A DNA stretch of 64,000 nt from Minisyncoccota bacterium (GTDB lineage: Bacteria; Patescibacteriota; Minisyncoccia; Phycocordibacterales; UBA9973). How positions within the stretch are numbered: position 1 is the first letter of the stretch; each line of letters begins with the position of its first letter. Under the pieces are notes generated by a model that saw only the letters and a list, made by a program, of their open reading frames with translations, did not search any database and was not told where the DNA came from. Position numbers and translations under genes: made by a program. The stretch spans positions 65,881 to 129,880 of the forward strand of contig JBAYHJ010000001.1 in the NCBI GenBank assembly GCA_041666225.1, given 5' to 3'. Positions 10,047-63,365 of the stretch are shown here, piece by piece.

Positions 10047-10064
10047 GCTATTCTATTAAAAGGT

Positions 10065-10072
10065 TGTATAAT
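10065..10072 (+). promoter_or_regulatory. Putative -10 element (TGTATAAT) for the downstream gene
   Basis: tTGTATAATt lies 6 nt upstream of the heptamer array; no clear -35. Confidence 0.3.
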
Positions 10073-10076
10073 TTAA

Positions 10077-10144
<68 letters not shown>

Positions 10145-14199: not shown

Positions 14200-16527
14200 A
14201 TGGAAAATCAACCAAGAAAAAGTAAAGCGTTCATAATTACAATCATAGCTATTGTATTGCTTTTGGTGGCTGGATATTTCCTATACAAGAGTGCAAAAAA
14301 TTCTTCCTCGACAAATATTATTTCAAGAATTTTCTCTCCATTAAGTTCTTCAAATAATTCGAAGGGCATCTCGGCTCAAGCAGGGGAAGACATAAAACAA
14401 GGTGACCAAGTATACACGGCAAGTACAAATACAAATGGTAACCCGATCGTTATGAAAGTTGTAGGAAGTGGAGCACTGAGTTCCGACAAAGTATTGGGAA
14501 TTGCCATTGGTAATATAAATAACGGAGAATTTGGAAGAGTTGAATTTAATACTCCGGGTTCAAATAGTTTCCTAGATTCTTTTTCAAATTTTATAAATGA
14601 TTTATTTACAGGCAACACTGGCAGTGGTGGTACTGGTACAGGAGGAAATGGTACTGGGGGTAATGGAACGGGTGGTGAATATTTACAAGTATGTAGTGAC
14701 ACTTTAGACAATGACTCTGATGGATTGATAGATACTCTCGATCCACAGTGCCACACCGATGGTGATGCTACAAATGCTAGTTCATATGCACCTACACATT
14801 ATTCTGAATTAAATTCACCTGGAGGTGGAGGTACTGGTGAATACACAGTACAGTGTAACGACAAAATAGACAATGATGCCGATGGATTGATTGACGCACT
14901 TGATCCACAGTGCCACGTTGATGGTGATTTAGCAAAAACATATATCCCAACTCATTATTTAGAAGCATCTTTACCAGGAGGTGATTATAAAATGCAGTGT
15001 AATGACACTTTAGACAATGATTCTGACGGATTGATAGATACTCTTGACCCACAGTGCCACACCGATGGTGATGCTACAAATGCTAGTTCATATGCACCTA
15101 CACATTATTCTGAATTAAATTCACCCACAGGTATATGTGCAAACGGAGCGACAAATTACCCAATTTGTACTATTGATATACCAGCGGGCCAACCCGACTT
15201 AACAGCAGGAAGGGTCACTCCTATTAGTGCCACGATCGATACTCCAACAACTCTTTCCTCTATCATTACAAATGAAGGAGATGGAGCAACTGGATATAAT
15301 TTCTCAGGCTTGTTCACAATTATAAAAAATTCTGACACAAATAGCACAACGACAAATGGTGCTGTTTCTAAGTCAATAATTAAAAATTTCATAGCTCGTA
15401 TTTTAAATAAAATATCTTGGATATCTAAAGCTATCGCATCAAATGAAATCGAGTACAGTGTCGTAGTTCCAGCTCTTTCGCCAAAAACAGGAAATGTGGC
15501 AACTGTCTCATATACTTTCAATTCCACGGGGACATACAATATCCGAGCCTGTGCAGATAAAAGATACTCAAGTGACACAGGAATAATTCCAGAATCAAAT
15601 GAGGACAATAATTGTGGACCGTGGGTCACCCTTACTGTCTCTGGATCATTGCCACCTCCTGGAGAAGAGTGTGCAAATGGAGCGACAAATTATCCTTTAT
15701 GTATCCTTGGCGATGATACACTTACACAGTGTAGTGATACCATAGATAATGATGGCGATAGTAAAATAGATGAATTAGACCCAAATTGTCATACAGATGG
15801 TGATTTGACAAAAGCATATCTAAGAGATCATGATTCTGAAGCCACTTCAACAATAACAGAAATAATTGAAGAAAATAAATGCCTACTGATAGAACAAAAT
15901 CCACTTATCTTTACTGATACAGAAAAAGCAAAATTGGCTGAGCTTCTACGTAAATTTTACTTAATATCATCCACCCTAAGGACAGAAGAAGACATCGTGG
16001 CAGTATATAGTGAGATAGACCAATATAAAAATTTTATCGCCCAAACAGACGATCTAATAGGTAGGTGTTATAAAGAAGTTGCTATTGTACAAAACAAGGG
16101 TGGTGGTGGAGGGTGGGTTAGAAATGGTAATCCTTGGTATCGAAAAGAAAAAGGGGGAACAGCCCCATATGGAGGAAATGGAATTTACACAGATTTTAAT
16201 ATTTTAGAGGGCAATGAGGGAAGAGTATATCAAGATGGAAAAGGTCCTGGGTGTAAGGCTGTGTCTGGTTATTTTTATGGTGGAAACCTTCTAAAAGATG
16301 CCATAATACATTATCCTCCAGCAGATGGTGGTGATGTAGTGGTTGGATATGCTGGGGCTAGTTGTGATTCAGTCAATACACAACCTTTCGATTGTTATCA
16401 AGTGAATAGTACTCTTTATGGGAATAACACTAATCTCCTTAAAAAAGAAGCACTGTTAGGTGCTGGGTGTAAGTGGAAAGAAGGAGTTTACCTTGATGGA
16501 GTAGAGAGAATTCTGGAGATTTGGTAG
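14200..16527 (+). CDS. Membrane-anchored surface protein with GTGGNG repeats and four thrombospondin-type-3-like (DxDxDGxxDxxDPxC) repeats
   Basis: N-terminal TM. Four C(S/N)DT(L/I)DNDxDGLIDxLDPQCH modules, two of them about 95% identical at the DNA level (14696-14826 vs 14998-15128). Confidence 0.5.
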   Translation: MENQPRKSKAFIITIIAIVLLLVAGYFLYKSAKNSSSTNIISRIFSPLSSSNNSKGISAQAGEDIKQGDQVYTASTNTNGNPIVMKVVGSGALSSDKVLGIAIGNINNGEFGRVEFNTPGSNSFLDSFSNFINDLFTGNTGSGGTGTGGNGTGGNGTGGEYLQVCSDTLDNDSDGLIDTLDPQCHTDGDATNASSYAPTHYSELNSPGGGGTGEYTVQCNDKIDNDADGLIDALDPQCHVDGDLAKTYIPTHYLEASLPGGDYKMQCNDTLDNDSDGLIDTLDPQCHTDGDATNASSYAPTHYSELNSPTGICANGATNYPICTIDIPAGQPDLTAGRVTPISATIDTPTTLSSIITNEGDGATGYNFSGLFTIIKNSDTNSTTTNGAVSKSIIKNFIARILNKISWISKAIASNEIEYSVVVPALSPKTGNVATVSYTFNSTGTYNIRACADKRYSSDTGIIPESNEDNNCGPWVTLTVSGSLPPPGEECANGATNYPLCILGDDTLTQCSDTIDNDGDSKIDELDPNCHTDGDLTKAYLRDHDSEATSTITEIIEENKCLLIEQNPLIFTDTEKAKLAELLRKFYLISSTLRTEEDIVAVYSEIDQYKNFIAQTDDLIGRCYKEVAIVQNKGGGGGWVRNGNPWYRKEKGGTAPYGGNGIYTDFNILEGNEGRVYQDGKGPGCKAVSGYFYGGNLLKDAIIHYPPADGGDVVVGYAGASCDSVNTQPFDCYQVNSTLYGNNTNLLKKEALLGAGCKWKEGVYLDGVERILEIW

Positions 16528-16529
16528 TT

Positions 16530-16625
16530 TGAATTAATTAAGAATTAATAATTAAGAATTAAGAAGGGGGAGTAGTAAGGAAAAAAGTAATTAAGAATTA
16601 AAAATTACGAATTAAGAATTGGGAA
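16530..16625. repeat. AT-rich dispersed intergenic repeat cluster (AATTAAGAATTAATAATTAAGAATTAAGAA ... TAATTAAGAATTAAAAATTACGAATTAAGAATTGGG)
   Basis: Built from the AATTAAGAATT / TAATAATTA(C/A)GAATT units that recur at 20571, 21036-21137, 32386, 61641, 62626 and 63301. Confidence 0.7.
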
Positions 16626-19581: not shown

Positions 19582-20184
19582 ATGGATCAAACACAATTAC
19601 AACAAAATATCGCTAAATACTATGCAAAACTTCCTAGTGATTTACAGCAATCTTTTTCGAGTATGGCCTGGATGGAAGATTTAAAAAATATTAGTACTAA
19701 ATATTCTCTTACCAATGAACAAACTGAGACCCTAGCAACAGAAACAACACTAGTTTTACTTGGTATTGTTCATCTGGAAGATTATGTTTTGACTCTTAAA
19801 AATGATTTAAAATTAAATGACGAAACTTTTAATAAAATATTAGATGATTTAGACGCAAATATTCTAAAAGACACCAAAGATGATCTTGTTAAAACATTTG
19901 AGTTAAATATTGAATTATTGGAAAAAGAAAATAGTAATAAAGAAAAAGAAATAATTAAAACAAATGAAGATGAAGTACCATTGCCACCATACGCAGAAGT
20001 AATTAAGAATGACGAATTACCAATTACAAAAGTTGAAATACCTAAGGGAATAGAAGTAAAACCAGAAATTAGTATTGCTCCGAAAAATATTTTTGAAGAA
20101 AAAATGAAAGGAGCAACAGTAAGCACTCAAACCGTTTCTGATTATTCTGTCACAAAAAAAGATCCATATAGAGAGGAGTTCTAA
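19582..20184 (+). CDS. Hypothetical protein
   Basis: 200-aa ORF, tightly packed in the operon. Confidence 0.4.
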   Translation: MDQTQLQQNIAKYYAKLPSDLQQSFSSMAWMEDLKNISTKYSLTNEQTETLATETTLVLLGIVHLEDYVLTLKNDLKLNDETFNKILDDLDANILKDTKDDLVKTFELNIELLEKENSNKEKEIIKTNEDEVPLPPYAEVIKNDELPITKVEIPKGIEVKPEISIAPKNIFEEKMKGATVSTQTVSDYSVTKKDPYREEF

Positions 20185-20215
20185 AAAATTAAGACTTAAC
20201 AATTATGAATTAGGA

Positions 20216-20566
20216 ATGAAAGAAGATAATATAATTAAAGAAAAAAGTTATAATTTTAGTCTTAAAATTATAAAAACATACCAAGAATTAACAATAGATA
20301 AAAAAGAGTTTATTCTTTCAAAACAACTAATTCGTTCAGGAACATCTATCGGGGCTAACGTAGAAGAATCAATCGGTGCTCAATCAAAAAATGATTTTAT
20401 ATCAAAAATAAGTATTTCTTACAAAGAGGCAAGGGAAACACTTTATTGGTTACATCTTTTAACAGATAGTGGTTTTCTAAAAAAGGAACAATCTGATACA
20501 CTTATATTTGATTGTGAAGAATTATTAAAAATACTCGGTTCTATTTTAAGAACATCTAAGTCGTGA
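20216..20566 (+). CDS. Four-helix-bundle protein (23S rRNA intervening-sequence protein family)
   Basis: QLIRSGTSIGANVEE signature and the ETLYWL motif. Confidence 0.7.
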   Translation: MKEDNIIKEKSYNFSLKIIKTYQELTIDKKEFILSKQLIRSGTSIGANVEESIGAQSKNDFISKISISYKEARETLYWLHLLTDSGFLKKEQSDTLIFDCEELLKILGSILRTSKS

Positions 20567-20570
20567 GTGT

Positions 20571-20610
20571 ATAATTATTAATTCTTAATTATTAATTCTT
20601 AATTAATCCA
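20571..20610. repeat. AT-rich dispersed repeat, reverse orientation (ATAATTATTAATTCTTAATTATTAATTCTTAATTAATCC)
   Basis: Reverse complement of the AATTAAGAATTAATAATTAAGAATT unit. Confidence 0.7.
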
Positions 20611-20612
20611 AG

Positions 20613-21035: not shown

Positions 21036-21140
21036 AATTAATAATTAGGAATTAAGAATTAAGAATTGGGCTAAAAAGTATGATATAATATTAGTAGTTA
21101 TGAATTCTTAATTCCTAATTATTAATTCTTAATTATTTAA
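21036..21140. repeat. Inverted pair of the AT-rich repeat (AATAATTAGGAATTAAGAATT ... AATTCTTAATTCCTAATTATT) flanking a TGATATAAT -10-like core
   Basis: Arms of about 22 bp at 21044-21066 and 21105-21127. The 36-nt centre contains gTATGATATAAT. Confidence 0.65.
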
Positions 21141-21142
21141 AT

Positions 21143-21793
21143 ATGATTAGTGCAAAAAGTTCTCAAGAGTTTGTTCCAATTAAAGAAGTTCGAAACGGCA
21201 TCATTGTCCTTAAAGATGGTGGTCTTCGTGCAATTCTTCTTGCTTCTTCTTTAAATCTTTCTTTAAAATCGTCCGATGAACAAGCTGCTATTATAAATGA
21301 ATTTCAAAATTTTCTAAATGGATTGGATTTCCCCACACAAATATCTATGCAATCACGCCGACTAGATATCCGCCCATATCTTTTAACCTTAGAAGCAAGA
21401 ATAAAAGAACAAGTTGAGCCACTTTTAAAAATACAAACGAAAGAATACATAGACTTTATTCGGTCTTTCACTGATGAAGTAAACATCATGACAAAAACTT
21501 TTTTTATCGTCGTTCCTTATAGTCCCACAATCATAAAATCTAGTGACAGTATGATGAATAGTTTACTTGGAGGAAGTTCTGAAAAAAAACAAATTGAAAA
21601 TACAAAAAAAGCCATGGATTTGGCTTCATTTGAAGAAAAGAGAACTCAACTTGATCAAAGGGTTGGAGTCATCATTGGAGGCTTGGGTAGAATTGGGATC
21701 AGAACAGAACAACTTAAAACAGATCAGGTTGTTGAACTTTTTTATAAAACATTTAACCCAGGAGATATTAGTCAGGGAATTAAATTACAATAA
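21143..21793 (+). CDS. VirB4 N-terminal (CagE/TrbE/VirB-type) domain protein; same frame as the downstream ATPase ORF, separated by one TAA
   Basis: VPIKEVRNGIIVLKDGGLRAILLASSLNLSLKSSDEQAAIINEFQNFLNGLDFPTQISMQSRRLD resembles the VirB4 N-terminal family pattern (DG.l.av.e..G...l.sd.e.e.....f...l..l......Q....R). Stop TAA at 21791-21793, then F-I, then ATG 21800 in the same frame. Confidence 0.45.
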   Translation: MISAKSSQEFVPIKEVRNGIIVLKDGGLRAILLASSLNLSLKSSDEQAAIINEFQNFLNGLDFPTQISMQSRRLDIRPYLLTLEARIKEQVEPLLKIQTKEYIDFIRSFTDEVNIMTKTFFIVVPYSPTIIKSSDSMMNSLLGGSSEKKQIENTKKAMDLASFEEKRTQLDQRVGVIIGGLGRIGIRTEQLKTDQVVELFYKTFNPGDISQGIKLQ

Positions 21794-26015: not shown

Positions 26016-27512
26016 ATGTCTAAAAAAATAATCATTTTTATAATAGCATTTATAACCACAGGAATAATAATTCTTGGGGTTTATTTCTGGATAAATAAAG
26101 ACAAAACCACAAATTTAGATGGAACTACTCCTTGGTATCAAGAGTTCAATCCTTTTGGAACTGGGAGTAATGCCACAAATAATACAGACAATAATAATGT
26201 GGGGGGAGACCAAAATGAAGTTCCAGATGGGGCAAATAATCAAACATCCAAATTCTATCAGATTACAGACTTTGCAATCGCTGGTGCTACCTTTTTAGAA
26301 GATACAAGACCAATTGTGGTTATACCGGGCCAAGAAGTTACCCAAAAGCCAGAACCAATTAAAACAATTATTAGTGCTGAAACAAAAGAAGGAAGAAAAG
26401 AAATCCAAATATTTTTGAATGAAACTCTTTCTTTAAAACCAGCCCTTGTGGTAGATGGAAATTTTGGCAAAAAAGTTACAAAGGCGATAAAAGATTTTCA
26501 AAAATTAAATAATTTACCAATCACAGGTATTGTTGATGCTGCAACTGCTCCATTTTTCATAAAAACAACTACAATTACGGACGTGGCAGAAAAAAACTTA
26601 TTTGAAACTGCTCCATCTGTCAGATATGTAGAGAGAATGAACGGACATATTTATAAAATGTTCCTAGATACAAAAATAAAAGAAAAAATTTCAAACTCAA
26701 CTATTCCTAGTATTTATGAAGCACTTTTTGATAAAACAGCAAAGACTGTGGTTTATAGATATTTATCAGAAGACAAAATAATAAGTAGTTTTATGGCAAC
26801 CTTAGGAGCAGTAAAGGGGGAGTTCCTTCCACAAAATATTTCTGGAATAACTACCTCGCCAGATAAAACTAAATTTTTCTATCTAACAGAAAACAGCAAT
26901 GGTGTCACGGGAACAGTGGGAGTTTTTGGGGGAGCAACGAGAGACAACGTATTTAGTTCTCCTTTTACAGAGTGGATACCACAATGGACAAAAAATCAAA
27001 ATATTTACCTAACAACAAAAGCTTCTTACAGTGTTTCTGGAAGTGTCTTTCTTTTAAACACAACAAACAAAACTATTTCAAAAATATTTGGTGGTGAACT
27101 GGGGCTCACTACATTAGTAAGTCCAAATGGGTCAAATGTTTTGTATAGTACATCCACAGAAACAGGCCCTAAGCTCGGTGTTTTTAATGCTACAAATCAC
27201 TCTACAAAAGATTTAAATACTTATGGACTACCTGAAAAATGTGTTTGGAGTAATGATGGTATTAGTGTTTACTGTGCTATTCCAAGTGTTATCACTGGCA
27301 ACCAATACCCTGATATTTGGTATCAAGGGCTAATTTCTTTTGATGATTATTTTGTAAAGATAGATACCAACAATGGTGAAAAAGTAACCATGGCAAATTC
27401 GGTCAATGAAAAACCATTAGATGGAACTTATCTATTTTTAGACAATAAAGAAGACAATCTTTTCTTTACAAACAAAAAAGATTCAACATTTTGGGGGTTG
27501 GACCTAAGATAA
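26016..27512 (+). CDS. Membrane-anchored protein with PG_binding_1 peptidoglycan-binding domain and beta-rich C-terminal domain
   Basis: N-terminal TM; VVDGNFGKKVTKAIKDFQKLNNLPITGIVDAATAPFF matches DGxFGxxTxxAVKxFQ...GL..DGIVG..T. Confidence 0.55.
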   Translation: MSKKIIIFIIAFITTGIIILGVYFWINKDKTTNLDGTTPWYQEFNPFGTGSNATNNTDNNNVGGDQNEVPDGANNQTSKFYQITDFAIAGATFLEDTRPIVVIPGQEVTQKPEPIKTIISAETKEGRKEIQIFLNETLSLKPALVVDGNFGKKVTKAIKDFQKLNNLPITGIVDAATAPFFIKTTTITDVAEKNLFETAPSVRYVERMNGHIYKMFLDTKIKEKISNSTIPSIYEALFDKTAKTVVYRYLSEDKIISSFMATLGAVKGEFLPQNISGITTSPDKTKFFYLTENSNGVTGTVGVFGGATRDNVFSSPFTEWIPQWTKNQNIYLTTKASYSVSGSVFLLNTTNKTISKIFGGELGLTTLVSPNGSNVLYSTSTETGPKLGVFNATNHSTKDLNTYGLPEKCVWSNDGISVYCAIPSVITGNQYPDIWYQGLISFDDYFVKIDTNNGEKVTMANSVNEKPLDGTYLFLDNKEDNLFFTNKKDSTFWGLDLR

Positions 27513-27545
27513 TTACCAATTAATAATTACCGATTAGTAATGAAT

Positions 27546-27580
27546 ACAAAAATGCACAAGCGAAGCTTGTGCATTTTTAA
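27546..27580. terminator. Bidirectional rho-independent terminator (aaaaaTGCACAAGCgaaGCTTGTGCAttttt) between convergent genes
   Basis: 9-bp stem, GAA loop, A-run and T-run; flanked by inverted AATTACCAATTAATAATTACC repeat variants. Confidence 0.7.
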
Positions 27581-27601
27581 TTAGTAATTTTTAATTGGTA
27601 A

Positions 27602-28069
27602 TTAGTCATTATTGACGTATTTAATCACAACTCTACGAGTTGGACCATACCCCTCTGATTCTGTTTTGATGTTTTTTGCTCCTTCTAAAAACATATGAAT
27701 AATACGTCTTTCATAAGAGGGCATCGGATCAATTTCAATATTACTTTTGAAATAACGAGCACGTTCTGCCATCATGTGGGCAATATTTTTTAAATTTTCA
27801 AAACGCTTTTTTTGATAACCATTTACATCAATAAAAATACTAGGACCTCTCTCTTCTTCTTTTATCGTTCCTTTCTCAACTATTCTTTGAACAATGTGAT
27901 TTAAAGAACGCAAGGTTTCACCCTCTCTTCCAATAATAAAATTAGAATCTGGTGTTTCTATAGAACACCAAAGTATTCCATTTTCATCCACAAATTCACA
28001 TTTGGTGAGTGTGCATGCTGTGTGTTTAAATATTTGCTCTATTGCTTCTTTTATTTTATCTTTATTCAT
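27602..28069 (-). CDS. jag: RNA-binding protein KhpB/Jag (KH + R3H domains)
   Basis: IGREGETLRSL is KH GxxG-like. MPSYERRIIHMFL is R3H-like. The gene sits downstream of yidC. Confidence 0.7.
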   Translation of the reverse strand: MNKDKIKEAIEQIFKHTACTLTKCEFVDENGILWCSIETPDSNFIIGREGETLRSLNHIVQRIVEKGTIKEEERGPSIFIDVNGYQKKRFENLKNIAHMMAERARYFKSNIEIDPMPSYERRIIHMFLEGAKNIKTESEGYGPTRRVVIKYVNND

Positions 28070-31057: not shown

Positions 31058-31290
31058 AAAATGATAAGTATGTGGAAAAGATGTGTTTATAAAAATAATA
31101 AATGTGTAAAAAATAGTTATTATTAAAAAAGTAAAAAATAATTAACAAGTTAAATAAAATTCAAAAATAAAAATTATAAAAATATACTTTGTTTGATTGG
31201 TCTAAAAAGTAATCCACATATTCACAGGTTTAATAATAGTAGTAAGTATTAATATATAAATTATAAACAATTAAGAAAACAATTAACTAT
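31058..31290. other. Candidate oriC segment (dnaA-dnaN spacer): AT-rich DUE plus DnaA-box-like 9-mers
   Basis: TAATCCACA and TTTTCCACA (as tgtggaaaa); more than 80% A+T across ~120 nt. A further ATATCCACA lies upstream of dnaA at ~29612. Confidence 0.5.
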
Positions 31291-32388: not shown

Positions 32389-32431
32389 TAATAATTAAGA
32401 ATTAATAATTACGAATTAATAATTATAATTC
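32386..32431. repeat. AT-rich dispersed repeat copy (TAATAATAATTAAGAATTAATAATTACGAATTAATAATTA)
   Basis: Same units as 16530 and 62626. Confidence 0.65.
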
Positions 32432-50749: not shown

Positions 50750-50791
50750 AGGAATCGAACTTTTGTGTATTTCTGATATAATTTGATTATG
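50750..50791 (+). promoter_or_regulatory. Conserved 42-nt promoter cassette copy 1 (GAATCGAAC...TATTTCTGATATAAT-N6-ATG), leaderless-type
   Basis: Aligns column by column with copies at 54031 and 55175. Confidence 0.55.
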
Positions 50792-54030: not shown

Positions 54031-54072
54031 GAGAATCAAACTTTTATCTATTTCTGTTATAATTTAAATATG
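54031..54072 (+). promoter_or_regulatory. Conserved promoter cassette copy 2 (GAGAATCAAAC...TATTTCTGTTATAAT-N6-ATG)
   Basis: See copy 1. Confidence 0.55.
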
Positions 54073-55174: not shown

Positions 55175-55216
55175 GAGAATCGAAATTTCCTGTATTTCTG
55201 ATATAATCTACATATG
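55175..55216 (+). promoter_or_regulatory. Conserved promoter cassette copy 3 (GAGAATCGAAA...TATTTCTGATATAAT-N6-ATG)
   Basis: See copy 1. Confidence 0.55.
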
Positions 55217-61640: not shown

Positions 61641-61685
61641 AAAAGTAATTAAAAATTAATAATTAAGAATTAATAATGAAATTCT
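61641..61685. repeat. AT-rich dispersed repeat copy (AATTAAAAATTAATAATTAAGAATTAATAATG)
   Basis: Same family. Confidence 0.6.
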
Positions 61686-62622
61686 AAAACAGTCTCTGGT
61701 GTTTGTTACAAAAATGGGCACTGCGACCATTTATAACTTTTCTTATTATAACACCATGGCAACCTTTTTTCATACACATAGTTCCTTTCTTTTTGTAAAC
61801 ATTATGATGGTTTTGAAAATCTCCTCGTAATCCATGTATATTTCTATAGTCAGACATCGAATCACCCCCGAAGTTGATCCCTTTGGTAAGTACTTCTTTC
61901 ATGGCTATGTATAGTTTTAATAGTTGTTTCGGTGGCACTTTGCTAGGTTTTGATTCAGGGTGAATACTCGAGAGCCATAGCATCTCATCTGAATAAATAT
62001 TACCAATACCCGCAATTATAGATTGATCCATAAGAACAGTTTTTATTTTCCAGTTTGGTTTTAGAATAAATCTTTCTTTAAATTTTGTAATTGTAAAAGA
62101 ATTTTCCAAAGGTTCTGGTCCAATATTTTTTAAATGCGAGCTTGCTCCTAGTATGTGAGTAGGAATTATTGTAACTTTTCCAAATTTTCGTGAATCACAA
62201 AATGCTAGATGTTTACCATTTGAAAAAGTTAAAACAACATGGATAAATCTATTATAAGGGTCATTTAATGGCCCCGTATTTTTTGGTTTCCAATTCGTAA
62301 TTATTAATTTTTCATTCTTAATTACCTCTTTGGTGTATTCACCAAAGAGGAGGTGGCCTGTCATTTTTAAATGGATAAGTATGGTATAACCACCAGAAAT
62401 ATTTATTAAAATATTCTTTGCTCTCCTTTCAACTTTTAGAATTTTTTGCCCAACAACTTTCTTTTTGAAATCTTTGAAAAAAGTTTCATCTTTTATTGTT
62501 TCTTTAAACTGTTTGATTGGATTTTTTTTAGATAAGTCGGTCCAGACATCAGTAAAAATAAGTCGGGGCAAGACTTTTTGTAAACCATTTACAGTTGTTG
62601 TGACTTCTGGTAATTCAGGCAT
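61684..62622 (-). CDS. mutM: Formamidopyrimidine-DNA glycosylase (Fpg/MutM, Nei family)
   Basis: N-terminal MPELPEV and a C-terminal zinc finger CMKKGCHGVIIRKVINGRSAHFCNKHQ. Confidence 0.85.
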   Translation of the reverse strand: MPELPEVTTTVNGLQKVLPRLIFTDVWTDLSKKNPIKQFKETIKDETFFKDFKKKVVGQKILKVERRAKNILINISGGYTILIHLKMTGHLLFGEYTKEVIKNEKLIITNWKPKNTGPLNDPYNRFIHVVLTFSNGKHLAFCDSRKFGKVTIIPTHILGASSHLKNIGPEPLENSFTITKFKERFILKPNWKIKTVLMDQSIIAGIGNIYSDEMLWLSSIHPESKPSKVPPKQLLKLYIAMKEVLTKGINFGGDSMSDYRNIHGLRGDFQNHHNVYKKKGTMCMKKGCHGVIIRKVINGRSAHFCNKHQRLF

Positions 62623-62625
62623 GTA

Positions 62626-62663
62626 AAAATAATTAAGAATTAAAAATTACGAATTGAAATACT
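62626..62663. repeat. AT-rich dispersed repeat copy (AATAATTAAGAATTAAAAATTACGAATTGAAATAC)
   Basis: Same family; near-identical to 16589-16620. Confidence 0.65.
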
Positions 62664-63300: not shown

Positions 63301-63365
63301 GTCAAAAAATTAATAAGAAATTTAATTCGTAATTCGTAATTAATAATTCGTAATTACTTAACATT
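63301..63365. repeat. AT-rich dispersed repeat, reverse-orientation variant (AATTCGTAATTCGTAATTAATAATTCGTAATTAC)
   Basis: Same family, in the divergent ruvA/rpsT spacer. Confidence 0.6.

Follow-up and report, generated by a model that had tools for sequence, protein, structure and literature searches.

Why does one short A/T-rich repeat recur between the genes of a Minisyncoccota contig, and why does it stand on both sides of a gene for a small four-helix-bundle protein? The window (the whole stretch of DNA that we analyzed, 64 kb) is 93% coding with a GC content of about 32%, and its genes include dnaA-dnaN, a PrgI/VirB4-type secretion cluster and type IV pilus genes. A preliminary description of this DNA listed eight sites of the repeat, and the motif is present at all eight coordinates. 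It also reported that the repeats flank the four-helix-bundle gene, which proved to be the key observation: a sense array lies upstream of this gene and an antisense array downstream.

The repeat consists of tandem heptamers in which AATTA precedes two variable nucleotides (AATTANN), and TRF returned a period of 7 for it in the 64-kb window. The units seen are AATTAAG, AATTAAT, AATTACG, AATTAAA and AATTAGG, with the variants AATTACC and AATTAGT. Three to five such units make up an array, which frequently terminates in GAATTGGG. The units are imperfect, the arrays occur on both strands, and their neighbors include dnaN, fpg, ruvA and rpsT. When an array is defined as at least three AATT cores at 7-nt spacing, the window contains 12, compared to a mean of 0.33 and a maximum of 3 in dinucleotide shuffles of the whole window. 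Shuffled AT-matched intergenic DNA, the control named in the preliminary description, was clearer still: 10 arrays are intergenic, and dinucleotide shuffling segment by segment gave a mean of 0.024 and a maximum of 1, so that the recurrence is not compositional. Other periods (5, 6, and 8 to 12) yielded 0 to 2 arrays in the window. Moreover, AATTAAGAATT occurs 53 times with at most one mismatch (13.8 ± 3.7 in shuffles; maximum, 24), and 23 11-mers are common to at least three intergenic segments (1.2 in shuffles; maximum, 6). Given the far lower shuffle counts and the enrichment of period 7 alone, we conclude that the repeat is real and no by-product of AT-rich intergenic DNA. The intergenic GC of just 26% would speak for a compositional artefact, but this reading is refuted by the shuffles (0.024 arrays versus the 10 observed), by the restriction of the enrichment to period 7, and by relatives of equal GC that lack any arrays (see below), and we give it practically no credence. 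Searched with Rfam at gathering thresholds, the window yielded one tRNA only, and rRNA is absent from it. A promoter scan of the window found promoter-like matches no more often than in shuffles.

Of the 12 arrays, 10 are wholly intergenic, an 11th overlaps a stop codon, and the 12th lies within the fpg open reading frame (ORF). The earlier statement that the repeat is always intergenic therefore holds for nearly all arrays and fails for this one, a five-unit array at positions 62292 to 62330 (minus strand; AATTAAG, AATGAAA, AATTAAT, AATTACG, AATTGGA). It is in frame inside fpg, sense on the minus strand, and coincides with an insertion of ~24 amino acids relative to solved Fpg structures. Nine arrays terminate 1 to 10 nt from a start codon. 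Solo arrays nearly fill short intergene spacers, with 0 to 10 nt left on at least one side: one, in sense orientation (32389 to 32430, plus strand), fills the gap between dnaN and an 87-aa ORF, another (61646 to 61681, plus strand) the 45-nt gap between two minus-strand genes, and a third (62631 to 62659, plus strand) the 39-nt ruvA-fpg gap, while a fourth (63323 to 63358, minus strand), which reads as AATTCGT units on the plus strand, ends 7 nt ahead of the rpsT ATG. Two arrays form a direct pair on the plus strand. The first (16536 to 16565, four units, sense) begins 8 nt past the stop of the ORF at 14200 to 16527, and its partner (16589 to 16625, five units) has the terminus GAATTGGGAA; the inter-array segment GAAGGGGGAGTAGTAAGG (16563 to 16580) resembles a second heptamer family, GTAGTAA.

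Three sites are inverted array pairs (21036/21103, 27509/27573 and 20187/20571), contrary to the earlier view that the repeats are not hairpins. The first pair contains no gene. Its left arm is a sense array (21036 to 21071, plus strand), and its right arm is an antisense array (21103 to 21137, minus strand) that ends 5 nt ahead of the ATG at 21143; with 21036 to 21067 the right arm forms a perfect 25-bp stem (dG, −30.5; z, −6.2). Between the arms is an extended −10-like box, TGATATAAT (21081 to 21089, plus strand), which was not picked up by the promoter scan. The second pair, also without a gene, encloses a terminator hairpin between convergent genes (27547 to 27579, without strand assignment; terminator scan positive). 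Here a variant sense array (27509 to 27541, plus strand; AATTACC, AATTAAT, AATTACC, GATTAGT), which overlaps the stop of the ORF at 26016 to 27512, pairs with a variant antisense array (27573 to 27611, minus strand) and extends the hairpin to about 35 bp (dG, −38.3; z, −9.9).

The third pair brackets the four-helix-bundle gene, and together they form a complete cassette of 428 nt (20185 to 20612) consisting of a sense array, an ORF and an antisense array. It lies in sense orientation within a type-IV-secretion-like operon, between two protein-coding genes. The ORF (20216 to 20566, plus strand) encodes a protein of 116 aa that belongs to PF05635 (23S rRNA intervening-sequence protein / S23p / Avd-like), with a Pfam E-value of 6.4e−27 and a match to PDB entry 2RLD at 2.4e−30. 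The 5′ arm (20187 to 20214, plus strand) is a degenerate sense array (AATTAAG, ACTTAAC, AATTATG, AATTAGG) that ends 1 nt ahead of the ATG. This degenerate array was absent from the earlier list of sites. The 3′ arm (20571 to 20607, minus strand) is an antisense array of five units, and a −10-like sequence, GTGTATAAT (20567 to 20575), overlaps its first bases and faces the next gene. Apart from that for the 116-aa four-helix bundle, the arms enclose no gene, and the cassette contains no transposase. Neither the comparison of occupied with empty sites nor that of two identical cassette copies (see below) revealed a convincing target-site duplication. The fold of the whole-cassette RNA was no better than that of shuffles (z, −1.0).

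How do these elements behave in close relatives? We compared the window with seven syntenic loci (VirB4 89 to 95% identical; about 22 kb per genome, eight related genomes) labeled Candidatus Paceibacterota, Nomurabacteria or Patescibacteria. At the site between a gene that we call gene X and PrgI, the window and the loci L122 and L203 have array, gene and array; L206 and L207 have a 25-nt spacer with neither gene nor arrays. L208 contains an inverted array pair alone at this site, and its gene sits one gap on, where the window has the gene-less pair. L202 contains a gene of another subfamily (26% identity) inside inverted GTAGTAA arrays, and its next gap also has the GTAGTAA heptamer. With the counts by AATT spacing and at lag 7 taken together, period-7 arrays number 0 in the three gene-free loci and 4 to 9 in the five gene-bearing loci, and the comparison showed that gene and arrays are gained or lost together in the fetched syntenic loci. 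L205 and L207 have the GC of the window. The gene-free L205 is among the loci closest to the window, and the gene-bearing L208 is the most distant. At syntenic positions that match those of arrays, the spacers of array-free relatives are 1 to 25 nt long. The gap at dnaN, for example, holds 52 nt of array with five units in the window and three units in L203, and reads TAA-T-ATG, with no units, in three relatives.

The same comparison dates the sequences that the gene-less pairs enclose. The TGATATAAT box is found without arrays in L205 and L207 and is therefore ancestral, and L207 has an orthologous terminator hairpin free of arrays. These flanking elements predate the arrays. Because the enclosed promoter and terminator are ancestral, the gene-less pairs cannot have arisen simply by insertion of a ready-made hairpin. 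Arrays are kept in L122 at three of four gaps orthologous to those of the window, and the 5′ arm of the cassette, degenerate in the window, is intact in L122. The right arm of the pair at 21036/21103 has five units in the window and four in L122, and an AGG unit in one arm of this pair is matched by CCT in the other, with neither being present in L122. The 3′ arm of the cassette, taken with the adjoining TAT (20568 to 20570), gives a 36-nt stretch that is identical to L122 at 36 of 36 positions, compared to a neutral expectation of about 40% at a dS of 1.19. Arrays are thus far better conserved than neutral sites at such divergence. The PF05635 protein is likewise under purifying selection: among the window, L122 and L203, the dN/dS of the ORF is 0.04 to 0.13 at a dS of 0.8 to 2.5, from which we conclude that the protein is functional.

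We then asked whether the gene and the arrays are linked beyond these relatives. Protein similarity alone (query, a three-sequence protein alignment) was used to fetch 80 metagenome loci with 52 to 87% identity. Stringent period-7 arrays lie within 150 nt upstream of the gene in 26 of 78 loci, downstream in 27 of 74, and on both sides in 16 of 72; arrays with periods of 5, 6, 8, 9, 10 or 11 were never found beside the PF05635 gene in the 80 loci. Beside the gene, arrays occur at a density of 2.48/kb, as opposed to 0.086/kb over the remaining 397 kb of these loci, where 28 of the 34 more distant arrays also belong to the AATT family. Of the control genes in these loci, 6% have arrays, about 6-fold fewer than for the PF05635 gene (Fisher P values of 4e−9 and 1e−10), and in random orientation (18:18 and 20:16). 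With a laxer criterion, AATT-phase arrays are found beside the gene in 55 of 65 loci, in hosts with a GC fraction of 0.28 to 0.56. The polarity is strong across the 80 loci, with 124 sense and 17 antisense units upstream and 13 sense and 94 antisense units downstream. The gene is co-oriented with its upstream neighbor in 66 of 72 cases (baseline, 71%; P = 2e−5), at a median gap of 40 nt. An iterated HMM search over all loci collected for this analysis revealed no additional family members.

The two arms of a locus also match each other. They are more complementary than arms combined across loci (19.8 versus 13.6; permutation P < 2e−4), and an arm helix is possible in 52 of 74 loci, with an average of 25.5 bp; the cassette arms reach helix scores of 19 (window) and 26 (L122). 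Arm complementarity is maintained by selection or by arm-to-arm copying. Mismatches between the arms show no bias toward G:U over A:C on the sense strand (31 versus 28), and hence do not point to RNA over DNA as the level at which complementarity matters.

More distant homologues extend the link to other heptamers. We studied 12 plasmid genes annotated as "four helix bundle protein" that are 31 to 49% identical to the window protein, in hosts that include Nostoc punctiforme PCC 73102, N. flagelliforme, Euhalothece, Bernardetia, Treponema saccharophilum, Planktothrix, Chlorohelix and Gloeocapsa. Ten of the 12 have period-7 arrays upstream and 10 have them downstream, with nine having both, and arrays of other periods were not found at these genes. 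The units are AATTCGC, AATTCAA, GTCGGAG, AGTAAAA, AGTGATT, CAGTGAC, AATCGTA, ATTTTAG and GATGAAG, one per gene, with the reverse complement of the upstream array standing downstream. AATTCGC, for instance, flanks the gene for WP_012413221.1 of N. punctiforme, and GTCGGAG is a unit from pNPUN01. Because each plasmid gene carries its own unit, the heptamer belongs to the cassette rather than to the host. The gene pairs that enclose these cassettes are cas2 and cas1, an RND adaptor and its permease, drmD and an MmeI-type enzyme, and a helicase and a methylase. Our data thus showed that the motif in the window is a local case of a rule, namely that PF05635 genes lie within inverted arrays of a lineage-specific heptamer. 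They also showed that the cassette architecture and its heptamer accompany the protein subfamily of the window in many hosts, while other subfamilies come with other heptamers.

We also started from the arrays. A scan for four consecutive AATTANN units, with one genome per species, gave at least 120 loci, and the hosts among the matches listed comprise Cyanobacteria, Bacteroidota, Ignavibacteria, Pyrinomonadaceae, Treponema, Clostridia, Lentisphaerae, Planctomycetales and another Patescibacteria genome. Among these at least 120 listed loci were five homologues of the four-helix-bundle gene; all five, like the gene in the window, have heptamer arrays on both sides, in three of the cases with unrelated units. 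The same listed loci contain 319 arrays against 5 PF05635 homologues. The ORFs that are bracketed by arrays in these pattern-selected loci (again at least 120 listed) are mostly ordinary housekeeping genes, with just two belonging to PF05635, and arrays therefore do not imply a PF05635 gene nearby. Two other subfamily members matched 1 and 0 loci in scans of viral contigs, and a phage collection contained 2 matches; because these scans yielded so few, phages are no evident vehicle.

One genome contains two copies of an L202-type cassette, in the gap between a tRNA synthetase gene and folD and in the folD/greA gap. The copies are 100% identical through the ORF and the inner array units, and the identity ends at the outer edges of arrays of unequal length, which we take as evidence that the cassette was copied recently. 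A related strain is a recombinant without folD.

What, then, are the arrays in the window? On balance, they are probably the terminal inverted-repeat arrays of a small selfish PF05635 cassette, together with gene-less copies of its ends. Gene-less arrays with the unit of the cassette are indeed dispersed nearby. Among the three origins offered in the preliminary description, remnants of a small mobile repeat come closest, and this suggestion is supported in part by the array-free relatives and by the travel of the arrays with the PF05635 gene. Against the cassette speak the facts that most arrays in the window lie away from the gene and that in heptamer-rich genomes arrays bracket ordinary genes too. 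The lack of a transposase and of a visible target-site duplication, the ancestral promoter and terminator inside the gene-less pairs, the missing G:U bias and the unremarkable fold of the whole cassette also count against it. We hypothesize that the cassette is a selfish element of the intervening-sequence (IVS) type that resides in operons instead of rRNA. It would be transcribed together with the host operon, and its inverted arrays could pair into a long A/U-rich duplex cleavable by RNase III, by analogy to the IVSs of rRNA. Insertion of a cassette would be tolerated because RNase III could cut this duplex. In this view, the cassette ends would have given rise to the solo arrays and to the gene-less pairs at the promoter and terminator, and the spread of these derivatives may have required the cassette or its protein. 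Arrays presumably lengthen and shorten by whole units through slippage, and on the host side they would act mostly as spacers and hairpins and not as regulators.

The order of events could also be the reverse, in that slippage-made heptanucleotide simple sequence repeats (SSRs) came first and cassettes merely prefer to insert in or beside them, or have their best chance of survival there. Among long SSRs, heptamers form the most over-represented class in many bacteria and an origin by polymerase slippage has been proposed in the literature, arrays far outnumber genes (319 versus 5 among the at least 120 listed loci), and copy numbers in the window and L122 differ by whole units. However, insertion into an existing array would leave direct halves, and the polarity seen is inverted (124:17 upstream and 13:94 downstream). 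The unit tracks the protein subfamily across hosts of 28 to 56% GC and differs between cassettes of a single genome or contig (L057; pNPUN01 versus pNPUN02). Moreover, arrays arise where relatives have spacers as short as 1 nt, gene-free relatives of the same GC have none, and duplicated cassette copies share their arrays, as seen once. We therefore regard this order of events as unlikely.

Could the arrays instead serve the host? Elements of the 5′ leader RNA that control translation by binding S1, Csp or CsrA-type proteins, or phase-variable spacers between promoter and start codon, would fit the nine arrays that end 1 to 10 nt from a start codon and the few Shine-Dalgarno-like sequences in repeat-bearing leaders, and have precedents in the TAACTGA repeats, for which binding by S1, Csp or CsrA-type proteins was proposed (MacGregor 2015), and in the Haemophilus hmw heptamers. 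But with a coding density of 93% any intergenic element must fall near a start codon, and the leader arrays are sense in three cases and antisense in five, which gives different RNA sequences. Arrays are found in 3′ regions too, slippage should be slow because the units are imperfect, and the genes are housekeeping genes (the dnaN neighbor, fpg and rpsT) and not contingency genes; such a leader function is improbable. Imperfect units beside dnaN, fpg, ruvA and rpsT likewise led us to reject a phase-variable contingency SSR. Host regulatory DNA, that is, sites for a nucleoid-associated protein or transcription factor or UP-element-like A/T tracts, as the preliminary description had offered, would be in line with the intergenic position and A/T richness of the arrays, with the array at 21036 to 21071 just upstream of a −10-like box, and with the retention at orthologous positions in L122 and L203. 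Yet close relatives with the same genes and promoters do without the sites, which are thus dispensable, and both orientations are present. Many arrays lie between stop and start codons within operons, past stop codons or in an ORF, so that 5′ leaders, 3′ ends and one coding sequence are all occupied, and unrelated phyla have the AATTANN unit along with the cassette gene. These findings leave regulatory DNA very improbable. A sigma-70 UP element should be an A/T tract located at about −40 to −60 of a promoter; only the array at 21036 to 21071 is placed upstream of a −10-like box, and the rest are found downstream of promoters, between genes of operons or past stop codons.

The closest known relative of the cassette is the IVS with an S23p ORF in the 23S rRNA of Leptospira and Coxiella burnetii (Ralph & McClelland 1993; Warrier et al. 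2016, PMC4990558), whose terminal stem is cleaved by RNase III (PMC4990558). Both have an ORF from a single family, PF05635, and the same size (428 nt for the cassette and for the Coxiella IVS), and in both, terminal inverted repeats give a stem of about 25 to 28 bp around the ORF; the distribution is sporadic with apparent horizontal transfer, and such elements are regarded as selfish. In contrast to the IVS, which resides in helix 25 or 45 of 23S rRNA, the cassette lies between protein-coding genes of an operon, its inverted repeats are made of tandem heptamers, and gene-less copies of its ends are scattered through the genome. In addition, its ORF is under purifying selection, whereas that of Coxiella is decaying. 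The PF05635 fold family is shared with Avd of diversity-generating retroelements, and L202-type relatives also match PF22296 (bAvd). Avd is a pentameric basic protein that acts on nucleic acid with a partner enzyme. The window, however, has no reverse transcriptase and no template or variable repeats.

Other comparisons concern the arrays. Like REP/REPIN-RAYT systems and MITEs, they are short intergenic repeats that are often arranged as inverted hairpin pairs, with many nonautonomous copies and a low-copy protein-coding partner. The partner differs, being a 116-aa four-helix bundle in which no nuclease or transposase fold is known; tandem heptamers take the place of a fixed palindrome, and no target-site duplication was seen. 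The RAYT (IS200/IS605-like) family had no match among 20 scanned ORFs of the window. A MITE proper was rejected, since inverted arms are present but neither a convincing target-site duplication nor a transposase-encoding parent is.

The striking over-representation of heptanucleotide repeats in some bacteria has been recognized since 1990. Such repeats include the STRR sequences of Calothrix (Mazel 1990), the dominant class of long SSRs (Mrazek 2007), the TAACTGA repeats of Beggiatoaceae, Cyanobacteria and Bacteroidetes, about which it was written that "no mechanism is evident" (MacGregor 2015, PMC4679880), and the GGGAATC / GGGGAYT repeats of Xanthomonas, with 70 to 75 inverted pairs, for which no link to mobile elements was found (Rehm 2015, PMC4692102). 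The AATTANN repeat is an additional member of this class. It shares with these repeats the 7-nt unit, the short imperfect tandem arrays, the mostly intergenic positions that are often near start codons, the two orientations with frequent inverted pairs, the 7-nt length steps between relatives, and a patchy distribution across phyla with no known vehicle. The AATTANN unit and the host phylum, Patescibacteria, are new, and the arrays are tied to one gene family, a link unreported for STRR, SSR, TAACTGA or GGGAATC repeats. The earlier remark that the motif had not been described before is hence accurate for the AATTANN unit in the present lineage but not for heptanucleotide arrays as a class.

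PF05635 proteins, for their part, have been known since 1993 from rRNA intervening sequences and were later noticed in cas operons and in CPR rRNA insertions. In a literature search largely outside subscription journals, we found no paper that joins PF05635, S23p or four-helix-bundle proteins to heptamer repeats, and the gene-array link appears to be new. It recurs in several phyla and may help to explain the abundance of 7-base repeats in some bacteria. More tentatively, PF05635 proteins could be the trans partners of heptamer arrays across bacteria, acting as sequence-specific binders or mobility factors, with each lineage having a cognate unit that brackets its gene and is spread or maintained by the protein; we consider this possible but doubtful. 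If true, it would provide both a mechanism and a vehicle for the over-representation of heptamers and their patchy spread across phyla (STRR, TAACTGA, GGGAATC), and it would also bear on the function of the IVS/S23p/Avd-like family. The link makes several points accessible to experiments, among them whether the protein binds its cognate array, whether arrays depend on the gene, and whether RNase III cuts the stems. It is also relevant to annotation, as arrays interrupt operons, extend terminators and enter ORFs.

A final comparison is with hmw1A and hmw2A of Haemophilus influenzae, which have an upstream heptanucleotide SSR and undergo phase variation (PMC8262952, PMC12721329). In common with the arrays described here, the hmw repeats are 7-nt repeats located between promoter and start codon, and RNase III acts on the hmw 5′ UTR. 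The hmw repeats are perfect, highly mutable and associated with adhesin genes, whereas AATTANN arrays are imperfect and have housekeeping neighbors. The window also contains a separate tract of 9.6 copies of AGAAAGT, which, unlike the AATTANN arrays, matches the description of a phase-variable contingency SSR.

Heptamer arrays other than those made of AATTANN units also occur in the window. A perfect (AGAAAGT)x9.6 tract at 10078-10144 lies downstream of a TTGTATAAT box (10064-10072) and ahead of the ATG of a 294-aa open reading frame (ORF), for which a Pfam search returned no match. The tract resembles a phase-variable leader and is a member of a second heptamer family (GTAGTAA/AGTAAGT), which in a relative flanks an L202-type four-helix-bundle gene, that is, one of the other subfamily, on both sides. 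Both types of array, GTAGTAA and AATTAAT, are found inside a single ORF of the syntenic locus L122 (4704-4735 and 4826-4862). This ORF is the orthologue of window 19582-20184 and is 39 aa longer than the window version; heptamer arrays can thus become part of a reading frame.

In two further relatives, which have no heptamer arrays, the corresponding intergenic gaps hold GC-rich inverted-repeat elements (L205, 8711-8918 and 15367-15493; L206, 9182-9354 and 15216-15345), for example, GGGGGAGTGCCCGTAGGGCGGAGGGGGTGAAGG followed at a distance by the complement of GGGGGAGTGCCCGTAGGGCGGAGGGGGTGAAGG. These elements are a different repeat family in the niches of the heptamer arrays. One relative alone carries an insertion between the TraC-like and VirB4 genes, an 84-aa GIY-YIG ORF (L203, 9742-9996).

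Cassettes of the L202 type can also be duplicated. In one Patescibacteria genome, folD is flanked by two 100%-identical four-helix-bundle cassettes (L221, 1401-1981 and 2673-3253), and a related strain (L222) has the recombinant form, with a single cassette and no folD at that place. On plasmids of Nostoc, Planktothrix, Pseudanabaena, and Chlorohelix (L239, L243, L244, and L245), four-helix-bundle genes with arrays are located within defence loci: in the cas2-cas1 gap, adjoining cas1, separating DISARM drmD from an MmeI-type enzyme, and with a helicase on one side and an N6 methylase on the other. In some genomic loci (L028, L058, L103, and L013), many heptamer arrays recur evenly, about every 80-100 bp, and their flanking sequences are conserved, as in cgcatctcat(AATTCAT)n AATTcgttagggcc. 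This arrangement is a higher-order repeat of arrays, and it could be mistaken for CRISPR.

The window also contains a conserved 31-nt promoter-like element, GAATCRAAnTTTnnnnTATTTCTGnTATAAT, at 50752-50782, 54033-54063, and 55177-55207 (3 copies versus 0 in shuffled sequence). All three copies are followed by a start codon within 0-6 nt, and several further genes have TATAAT 6-8 nt ahead of the ATG. Such proximity of TATAAT to the start codons suggests that these genes are transcribed as leaderless mRNAs.

The very AT-rich dnaA-dnaN spacer (31058-31290; 233 nt), with the DnaA-box-like words TGTGGAAAA and AATCCACA, may be the replication origin; GC skew shows no sign switch across the window. 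Lastly, a 775-aa ORF with a weak CARDB match includes a 144-nt tandem duplication (14849-15125; 1.9 copies, 73% matches).
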